From Curvularia clavata (lineage: Eukaryota): a DNA stretch of 64,000 nt. The stretch is taken from NCBI GenBank assembly GCA_023920165.1, contig CP089275.1, positions 1,364,001-1,428,000 of the forward strand, written 5' to 3'. Made by a program: the position numbers and the translations under genes. Shown one piece after another: positions 29,036 through 30,520 of this stretch (position 1 is its first letter; the number at the start of each line of letters is the position of its first letter). The notes under the pieces were generated by a model, which was given only the letters and a program-made list of their open reading frames with translations, was not told the origin of the DNA and searched no databases.

Positions 29036-30520
29036 TCACCAAACTCCGGGTATCAGGCGCCAGCGGACACGACGGCAGTACTCTTGCCAGTACTTGCCAT
29101 ACTTATCGTGGCATCGCCTCTCGTCTCGCAAGCAGCGGTGTATAAGTAAACCCAGCATAAAAAAACCATAGAACCATACCAGCGGCCTCGTAGTACCAAC
29201 TAGTGCGCACATAGCAAAGCTCATAAGGAGATCGCCTACATAATTTGCGTGTCGCGACCACCCCCACCATCCGCTATAAAGCAAGATGCTCTCGTGCACT
29301 TTTCCATCTGTTGTCTTGTATCTAGCCCGGATGTATCGCGGGGGCTGTCCGAAAATAACACAGTTCCCGTTGCTGGTGCGGACTCGATCCTTTTGGTTGT
29401 TCGCGACGCGGAACATTATATATCCAGCCAGGCCCAGCCCAAAAACAATTAGGAGATAGATTCTGGATACTACGGTTGGGAAGTGGCCTAGATACTGCGC
29501 CTGGAGCGTGTAAGTAGCTGGGATCCAGACAATGGACCCCCAAGCCAGATAGAAACCAAAGTGGTCATGGGCGATGTCAATTGTCCGTAGGTACCAATTC
29601 TCGTGAACGAAAAAATCTACTACATAGATTCCATGCAGTATTGTGACAAGGACAAGCGAGGGCGTGATGACATGGTATGTTTGATACTGGTAGGCAATGT
29701 TGGATATGTCGCTATGGTCAGAGTCAGTCAGTCCTCCGTCACCATCCGTAGGTAGATATTGATAACAAACTTACATAACAGTCCAAGAAATCATGCCCAA
29801 TCTGCCTACCGTGAAAAGCTTTATATCGAAGTCATTTCCAATCCTGGGGTTGTGTTCAATGCCCATGTAGAAGTCATACAAGAGAGAACCTAGTTACACA
29901 GTTAACATCACCAGCTAGCTAATCGTGTTGGTTTGTCAAGGTTACTACTTACCGCTAAATTTTCGATCTCGAATATGTGAGGGGACAAGGTGGCCCTTGA
30001 TAAAGGCAAAACCAGACACCAAGAAGCCGAAAACGTTGGCCACGTGCCACAAATTAATCCAGTTCTTCGGGACAAAGCCAGGGTCCACAACTCCCAGTAA
30101 GCAAAGGATGCCAAGAGTGGCATGTGTGACGAACCATGCATAGAGACCATTGGTTCTGTATGAGAGTATGTTACCACCCGCAGTCGGTTGCCCTGAGCTC
30201 TTCTTTCCAGGAAGGCCCCAGAAAAGAAGCGCCTGAAGAAGCACCCAGAAAGTATACCCAGCTAGAGCATGCCAGCTAGAGCGAAAGTAATAAGCTGGAA
30301 GGGTCGAGGAGAGATTTCCAGAATATGCAGCATAGACAAACTCCGCGACTGAGCCCTGGAATTCAATGATGATGATGCTGAATAGAATTCCTAGAAGAGG
30401 CGTCGCACAGACCAGGAACGCGGAGAGGACAGAATAGCCCAATGATCCTCGATTGCAGGCTCGACCCCAGATAGCTGACTTCTGCGGTTCATTTGCTACG
30501 TGTACAATACCCGCCAACAT
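29036..30520 (-). CDS. DHCR7: Sterol Delta7-reductase (7-dehydrocholesterol reductase/DWF5-type; ERG4/ERG24 superfamily)
   Basis: Exons 30520-29953, 29889-29775 and 29711-29036. Motifs WGRA, [60 protein letters not shown] and HRCLRDERRCHDKYGKYW match my recollection of DHCR7 better than Erg4/Erg24. Start codon uncertain. Confidence 0.88.

Follow-up and report, generated by a model that had tools for sequence, protein, structure and literature searches.

A DHCR7-type sterol reductase gene adjoining acyltransferase and cytochrome P450 genes in Curvularia clavata

Sterol reductases of the ERG4/ERG24 family have been divided by Desmond and Gribaldo (PMC2817430) into four orthology groups, defined as ERG4, DHCR7/DWF5, ERG24 and FK. 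A gene of this family was analyzed here in a stretch of 64,000 nucleotides from Curvularia clavata (assembly GCA_023920165.1, contig CP089275.1, positions 1,364,001 to 1,428,000; hereafter the window, whose numbering is used throughout). A sequence-only reading of the window had noticed a DHCR7-like gene at 29036..30520, described as being of the animal/plant type (DHCR7, DWF5) rather than Erg4 or Erg24. The gene is present at that position, on the minus strand, and is intact. On balance, we favor the reading that it encodes a sterol reductase, NADPH-dependent and probably active, of the animal/fungal type of the DHCR7 orthogroup, belonging to a second lineage of Pezizomycotina paralogues (lineage II) and working with an MBOAT_2-type acyltransferase and three cytochromes P450 (P450s) in sterol tailoring.

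Related genes and delta-5 sterols have been described from several fungi. The Mortierella alpina enzyme is cited as a characterized delta-7 reductase (PMC10629195, PMC10992410). Among ascomycetes, dhcr7 genes have been reported in Fusarium species by James et al. (PMC9605146), the one of Fusarium keratoplasticum showing 0 reads in both conditions tested, and the Magnaporthe DHCR7 homologue MGG_03765 was reported to be induced during appressorium formation (Oh et al., PMC2441471). Bulk sterols of the delta-7-reduced (delta-5) kind are described from powdery mildews, Tuber and Taphrinales (PMC2878339) and from Paracoccidioides (PMC3382159).

Gene structure and placement within the ERG4/ERG24 family

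The reductase gene comprises three exons that code for a protein of 452 amino acids of the ERG4/ERG24 family. Its start codon ATG occupies 30520-30518 and its stop codon TGA 29038-29036, and the joined coding sequence of 1359 nt corresponds to 452 codons plus the stop. Matches given below are to Pfam family PF01222 (ERG4_ERG24), and P0004 is a 452-amino-acid protein of Pyrenophora seminiperda.

29953..30520, minus strand: exon 1, 189 codons plus 1 base; profile positions 54-171, E 3.8e-09
29890..29952, minus strand: intron 1, 63 nt, GTAAGT...AG; alignment to P0004 free of gaps once removed
29775..29889, minus strand: exon 2, 115 nt; profile positions 182-216, E 7.1e-09
29712..29774, minus strand: intron 2, 63 nt, GTAAGT...AG; alignment to P0004 free of gaps once removed
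29036..29711, minus strand: exon 3, 224 codons plus TGA, the conserved C-terminal half; profile positions 219-432, E 1.8e-58

All three exon translations matched PF01222 colinearly, from position 54 to position 432 of the 432-position profile. The spliced protein aligned with P0004 from end to end (1-452 to 1-452) with 89.8% identity and 0 gaps, which confirmed the splice sites. The peptides quoted in the sequence-only reading were all recovered after splicing, WGRA being residues 17-20 in exon 1, and the others, including YKTTDGKVHESILLYSGWWG, lying within exon 3. Two solved structures matched the reductase, 4quv (E 1.1e-48, with exon 3) and 9l5r (E 4.4e-36), both deposited as delta(14)-sterol reductase. 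These were the sole structural matches, and no DHCR7 entry was found among the solved structures, so that the subfamily cannot be told from them. NCBIfam gave no match for the reductase or for the neighboring acyltransferase.

Homologues were collected in two ways. A word-indexed search, with exon 3 as query and longer proteins as the only targets, yielded 425 proteins at E <= 1e-10 among 2996 candidates (the best 120 being listed). HMMER, run exhaustively against 1.84 billion cluster representatives, yielded 2398 proteins at E <= 0.001, including 217 at E <= 1e-30. From the best 150 of these 2398, 54 were excluded as fragments or fusions, and the remaining 96 representatives (380-720 amino acids) were joined with the window protein and 11 named fungal proteins in a FastTree analysis. 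Three large groups were obtained, each with its own motif blocks. The first contained the window protein; a profile built from nine of its non-fungal members retrieved DHCR7-named proteins from fishes, amphibians, reptiles, birds, Mus, Ciona, Branchiostoma and hemichordates, and also proteins from Mortierella alpina, Glomeromycotina and Waddlia. The second had as one of its members a protein of the haptophyte Diacronema lutheri, with relatives in diatoms and dinoflagellates that are also named 7-dehydrocholesterol reductase by their source. The third included proteins of the length of LBR, and 9l5r scored highest with it (260 bits, versus 162, 146 and 100 for other groups).

Maximum-likelihood analysis was carried out with IQ-TREE under LG+G4 on 56 hand-picked rows consisting of named proteins and group representatives; the tree was unrooted, and supports are given as ultrafast bootstrap/Shimodaira-Hasegawa-like approximate likelihood ratio test (SH-aLRT). 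The window protein fell inside a clade of 32 rows (95/95) made up of all 22 fungal rows, six named animal DHCR7 proteins of vertebrate, tunicate, lancelet and hemichordate origin, the Waddlia protein and three representatives without a name. Inside this clade the fungal rows grouped together (99/98), as did those of Pezizomycotina (100/100). Two other clades lay apart from it, one of ten Erg24/LBR/MaSR1-like rows (100/100) and one of nine algal/plant-type rows including Diacronema and Odontella (100/100). Uniting the fungal rows with the Erg24 clade lowered the log-likelihood by 41.5 and was rejected by the approximately unbiased (AU) test (p 0.0023). BLAST bit scores of the window protein were 370 to the Mortierella alpina protein and 320-328 to mouse and fish DHCR7, compared with 165-229 to Erg24-type and 195-196 to algal/plant-type proteins.

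Out of 82 columns invariant in 19 references of the DHCR7 clade, 75 were kept by the window protein. The C-terminal block HR..RD...C..KYG, common to the whole family, was also kept, and the residues invariant across all clades (L188, L189, R192, R195, D196, C200, K203, Y204 and G205) were present in exon 3. Motifs TIDIxHDHFG and FRxxNxQKD were shared with DHCR7-named proteins and clade mates, and WGR near the N-terminus also appeared in the consensus of nine non-fungal clade members. Combined, these sequence comparisons indicate that the gene is a member of the DHCR7 orthogroup of the animal/fungal type, and is neither of the Erg24 type nor of the DWF5 type. The choice of DHCR7 over Erg24 made in the sequence-only reading was thus borne out, and so was the animal half of its "animal/plant-type" label, whereas the plant half was not, given the separate plant-type clade and the low scores to it. 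The phylogeny that it had proposed gave the DHCR7 placement, apart from the Erg24/LBR and algal/plant-type clades, in trees run without an Erg4 reference.

Some features of the analysis and of the protein weigh against this assignment or the activity that it implies. The group submitted to the AU test was named only after the tree had been seen, the clade supports come from LG+G4 only, and every tree was built without an Erg4 reference. At the other seven of the 82 columns the window protein departs from the invariant residue, for instance with S instead of D at 287 and V instead of P at 406, and the stem leading to lineage II is long, 0.27 in the 56-row IQ-TREE analysis and 0.33 in a FastTree analysis of 124 rows described below.

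An extra paralogue of Erg24 (C14 reductase) or Erg4 (C24(28) reductase) serving ordinary ergosterol synthesis would agree with the deposited names of both solved relatives, with the database name "C-14 sterol reductase" carried by some homologues and with the lack of Erg4 from the trees. The structure names are uninformative, though, with no DHCR7 structure entry found, and the separation of the Erg24/LBR/MaSR1-like clade together with the result of the AU test led to rejection of an Erg24 paralogue. With respect to Erg4, the 96 near-full-length representatives formed no further clade beside the window protein, and the distinction from Erg4 is suggested by this absence of another nearby clade among the best 150 representatives. 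We regard either kind of paralogue as highly improbable.

Two side observations arose from these comparisons. The name DHCR7 is shared by two deep clades, one animal/fungal and one algal/plant-type, whose motif blocks differ, and BLAST scores place the animal/fungal type no closer to the algal/plant type than to Erg24-type proteins. In addition, the protein of the chlamydia Waddlia chondrophila (P0299) lay inside the animal DHCR7 sub-clade (97/99), in agreement with the eukaryote-to-bacterium transfer proposed in PMC2817430.

Distribution in ascomycetes and paralogue lineages

The rarity of such a gene in an ascomycete, implied by the sequence-only reading, was contradicted by the searches. 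The best 120 of the 425 matches came nearly all from Pezizomycotina, followed by early-diverging fungi, and many were named 7-dehydrocholesterol reductase by their source; the Fusarium and Magnaporthe genes were moreover already in print (PMC9605146, PMC2441471). A DHCR7-type gene in a filamentous ascomycete is ordinary: scores of Pezizomycotina carry one, and databases already name them so.

To resolve the Pezizomycotina proteins, a FastTree analysis was made of 124 rows drawn from the matches listed. The 107 Pezizomycotina rows among these matches formed one clade with two deep lineages. Lineage I (50 rows) included powdery mildews, Botrytis, Tuber, Pyronema, Onygenales, Aspergillus, Penicillium, several Dothideomycetes and a few Fusarium, whereas lineage II (57 rows) consisted mostly of Sordariomycetes, with Eurotiomycetes, Lecanoromycetes and Leotiomycetes scattered among them. 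Fusarium oxysporum had one copy in each, P0079 in lineage I and P0052 in lineage II. The window protein and that of P. seminiperda were the only Dothideomycetes in lineage II, 2 of the 57 rows among the matches listed, and their sister was Pyricularia (support 100 in FastTree, 100/100 in IQ-TREE). On this sequence evidence the window gene belongs to lineage II, a second and patchily distributed lineage of Pezizomycotina paralogues. Horizontal transfer would account for the patchy pattern with Pyricularia as sister, and so would an ancient duplication with many subsequent losses.

The length of the lineage II stem makes a shift of substrate possible. A reductase that kept the DHCR7 fold but was neofunctionalized could act on another double bond, or on a steroid already oxidized by the neighboring P450s, and would then catalyze a late step rather than the gateway one. 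In addition to the long stem, the seven changed columns speak for this, as does the history of the ERG4/ERG24 family, whose regiospecificity changed several times among C7, C14 and C24(28) (PMC2817430). By contrast, the blocks of motifs around the conserved C-terminal half hardly differ from their counterparts in Mortierellaceae and chytrids, and the large majority of invariant columns are retained, which leaves neofunctionalization improbable.

Absence of any present function, the gene being a decaying or silent relic, was also considered. The 0 reads obtained for F. keratoplasticum dhcr7 in two conditions (PMC9605146) are in favor of this, and if that gene is assumed to be the lineage II copy, they indicate that such genes can be silent, a point that also counts against the favored reading of an active enzyme. 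The window gene itself has an intact frame, canonical splice sites and a gap-free alignment to an orthologue at 89.8% identity, and it keeps the 75 invariant columns. A pseudogene was rejected on the intact frame and the conserved residues, and a relic of either sort appears very unlikely.

Two groups of database entries deserve mention in their own right. Proteins P0046 (Fusarium fujikuroi), P0089 (Naviculisporaceae sp.) and P0111 (Podospora australis) are models of 948-996 amino acids in which ERG4_ERG24 is joined to FAD_binding_4; in these three Sordariomycetes, the lineage II reductase seems to be adjacent or fused to a FAD oxidoreductase, possibly DHCR24-like. Protein P0098, filed under the tree Corymbia citriodora and encoded on a contig of 1934 bp, grouped with the fungus Pseudocercospora (support 99), and probably represents fungal contamination of a plant assembly.

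Gene neighborhood and proposed function

The reductase gene is one of several adjacent genes for tailoring enzymes: the stretch 29.0-39.3 kb also holds those for an MBOAT_2-type acyltransferase and three P450s. Features of the neighborhood and of the flanks, identified through Pfam matches in open reading frames (ORFs), are as follows.

30521..30946: divergent intergenic region from the reductase ATG to the acyltransferase ATG, 426 bp; presumed shared promoter
30947..32190, plus strand: MBOAT_2-type membrane O-acyltransferase gene; PF13813, E 8.5e-14, in the second ORF; at least one intron near 31690-31740
32896..34563, minus strand: P450 no. 1; PF00067, E 5.1e-20; frame broken at 33880-33882 and 34375-34377
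35216..36880, plus strand: P450 no. 2, a paralogue of P450 no. 1; PF00067, E 8.4e-30
37525..39277, plus strand: P450 no. 3, of a different type; PF00067 on two ORFs, E 2.7e-06 and 2.9e-13
27840..28415, minus strand: OsmC-like ORF adjoining the reductase; PF02566, E 7.1e-14
2404-3789, 11180-11920, 16464-17240, 45755-47282, 49705-51695, 52924-54379, 55200-56324 and 57278-58608: flank genes of housekeeping type, listed alongside as annexin, DHHC palmitoyltransferase, homeobox protein, amino-acid transporter, carboxyltransferase, GH76, PROPPIN/WD40 and septin

The breaks of frame in P450 no. 1 point to introns at 33880-33882 and 34375-34377. The best solved relatives of this protein were CYP7A1 (E 6.1e-14) and CYP8B1 (E 7e-11), with about 250 residues aligned. 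CYP7A1 is the cholesterol 7-alpha-hydroxylase and CYP8B1 the sterol 12-alpha-hydroxylase, two animal bile-acid enzymes whose substrates have a delta-5 or delta-4 sterol nucleus. P450 no. 2 was 26% identical to P450 no. 1 (E 2e-33). For the middle exon of P450 no. 3, no solved relative was found at E 0.001.

The Pfam-domain scan covered 146 ORFs of at least 110 amino acids over the window and 107 of the 148 ORFs of 55-109 amino acids overlapping 21-45.5 kb; 41 small ORFs on or opposite assigned genes were excluded, and enzymes lacking a Pfam domain would escape the scan. No further Pfam domain was found in ORFs between 21 and 45 kb, and a FAD_binding_4 gene, such as that joined to the reductase in the three Sordariomycete models, was not found in the window. 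A self-resistance copy inside a toxin cluster was rejected because the scan revealed no core enzyme. The G+C content of 28-41 kb was about 0.47 (average of table rows), below the rest of the window; G+C fell to 0.40 at 26-27 kb and was 0.50-0.62 in most of the flanks. No paper on a cluster of reductase, P450 and acyltransferase genes was found in the open-access literature searched.

These genes suggest a pathway for the enzyme that we favor. Going by its family, the reductase would use NADPH to saturate a delta-5,7 sterol, such as ergosterol or a late precursor, at its C7-C8 double bond, and its product would be a delta-5 sterol such as brassicasterol. Since the gene group lacks a scaffold-forming enzyme, primary metabolism is the probable source of the substrate sterol, which the reductase, judging by its position, may divert into the delta-5 form. 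The 426-bp divergent region is presumed to be a shared promoter; the head-to-head arrangement suggests that it could co-regulate the reductase and the acyltransferase. The adjacent P450s, two of the three being best explained as CYP7/CYP8-like, might then hydroxylate the delta-5 sterol, and the acyltransferase might esterify the hydroxylated product, steps that are again proposed from gene position. Because a delta-5 sterol is a substrate of the CYP7 type, the order reductase, P450 hydroxylations and O-acylation is plausible. The end product would be an oxygenated, acylated sterol rather than a bulk membrane sterol. A sterol-tailoring cluster at this locus is thus a plausible proposal, and the role of gateway enzyme assigned to the reductase by the sequence-only reading is a reasonable one in view of the gene's position. 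Effects on polyene sensitivity or on plant recognition of ergosterol, also raised there, are speculation.

Evidence from the neighborhood is not uniformly favorable to this pathway. Among solved structures, P450 no. 2 was closest to P450 BM3 and not to a sterol P450. No scaffold-forming enzyme (cyclase, polyketide synthase or nonribosomal peptide synthetase), regulator or transcription factor, or transporter was found in the gene group by the Pfam-domain scan, and no biochemically characterized ascomycete member of the reductase family was found in the literature searched.

The reductase might instead remodel the membrane sterols of the fungus conditionally, supplying brassicasterol-type delta-5 sterols at, for example, a developmental or infection stage, with the P450 and acyltransferase neighbors unrelated to it. 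Such a role accords with the bulk delta-5 sterols of several ascomycete groups (PMC2878339, PMC3382159), and DHCR7-like proteins from powdery mildews, Tuber and Onygenales, which are delta-5-sterol groups, were indeed among the matches listed. Appressorial induction of Magnaporthe MGG_03765 (PMC2441471), a possible lineage II orthologue, is in line with it, and so is a gene group in which the Pfam scan detected neither core enzyme nor regulator nor transporter. The species known for delta-5 bulk sterols have lineage I copies, however, whereas the window gene is of lineage II; the reductase stands head to head with the acyltransferase with 426 bp between them, and a CYP7A1/CYP8B1-like P450 lies nearby. 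In view of this evidence, membrane remodeling is a serious but rather unlikely explanation, and sterol tailoring by the five gene products remains the one that we prefer.

A bolder form of the sterol-tailoring proposal can be envisaged, in which a duplicated DHCR7 was recruited out of primary sterol metabolism as the committing step of a sterol-derived, specialized-metabolite cluster devoid of a core enzyme (delta-5,7 to delta-5 reduction, CYP7/CYP8-like hydroxylation and MBOAT-type O-acylation), and in which the reductase, with or without the whole cluster, was acquired horizontally by Pyrenophora from a Magnaporthales-like donor. We put this forward tentatively, considering it doubtful in its entirety. 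If true, this recruitment in a fungus would have its parallel in plants, where paralogues of the sterol pathway are recruited into steroid clusters.

As a single gene the reductase matters little, DHCR7-type genes being routine in filamentous ascomycetes. Its likely membership in a sterol-tailoring gene group and its patchy paralogue lineage are modestly interesting. Should the five-gene group work as a unit, it would constitute a fungal steroid pathway starting from a membrane sterol and not from a dedicated cyclase. It would also provide the first assigned function for the lineage II DHCR7 paralogue, which is carried by many plant-pathogenic Sordariomycetes, and a delta-7 reductase together with sterol-ring P450s for steroid engineering in yeast.

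Comparison with known systems

Among the relatives of the window protein, Erg4, the C24(28) reductase, is placed in the same Pfam family by the family name only. The C14 reductases Erg24, TM7SF2, LBR and MaSR1 share the fold family, as the matches to 4quv and 9l5r illustrate, but form a clade of their own (100/100) whose union with the fungal rows the AU test rejects. Plant/algal proteins of the DWF5 type belong to the same Pfam family and bear the same source name, for example in Diacronema and diatoms; they differ in forming a separate deep clade (100/100), in having their own blocks, DRAGFYICWG and NYxxDxQRQ, and in scoring 195-196 bits to the window protein. The nearest clusters in the ESM Atlas were mixed and served as leads only; by one such lead, P0226 is probably a plant protein.

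Closer to the window protein is P0308 of Mortierella alpina, which belongs to the same fungal DHCR7 clade (99/98) and shows 44% identity and 370 bits to it. A sterol delta-7 reductase of Mortierella alpina, MoDelta7SR, is said to have been described by Zhang et al. in 2007. P0308 may be this published protein. MoDelta7SR is reported to yield desmosterol as a bulk sterol in Mortierella alpina. Ascomycete homologues, among them Fusarium dhcr7, Magnaporthe MGG_03765 and P0004, are annotated but uncharacterized. P0004 of P. seminiperda, 89.8% identical to the window protein, lies in the same Pezizomycotina clade (100/100), and P0052 of Fusarium oxysporum and P0013 and P0019 of Pyricularia share its lineage II.

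Animal DHCR7, as represented by Mus, Hirundo, Poecilia and Ciona, belongs to the same orthogroup as the window protein (95/95), aligns with it over the full length at 40.5-42.2% BLAST identity (320-328 bits) and has the TIDIxHDHFG and FRxxNxQKD blocks in common with it. Unlike the animal enzymes, the window protein is found in a fungal host, which makes ergosterol-type sterols, and it belongs to a Pezizomycotina-specific paralogue lineage, with P450 and acyltransferase genes adjoining its own.

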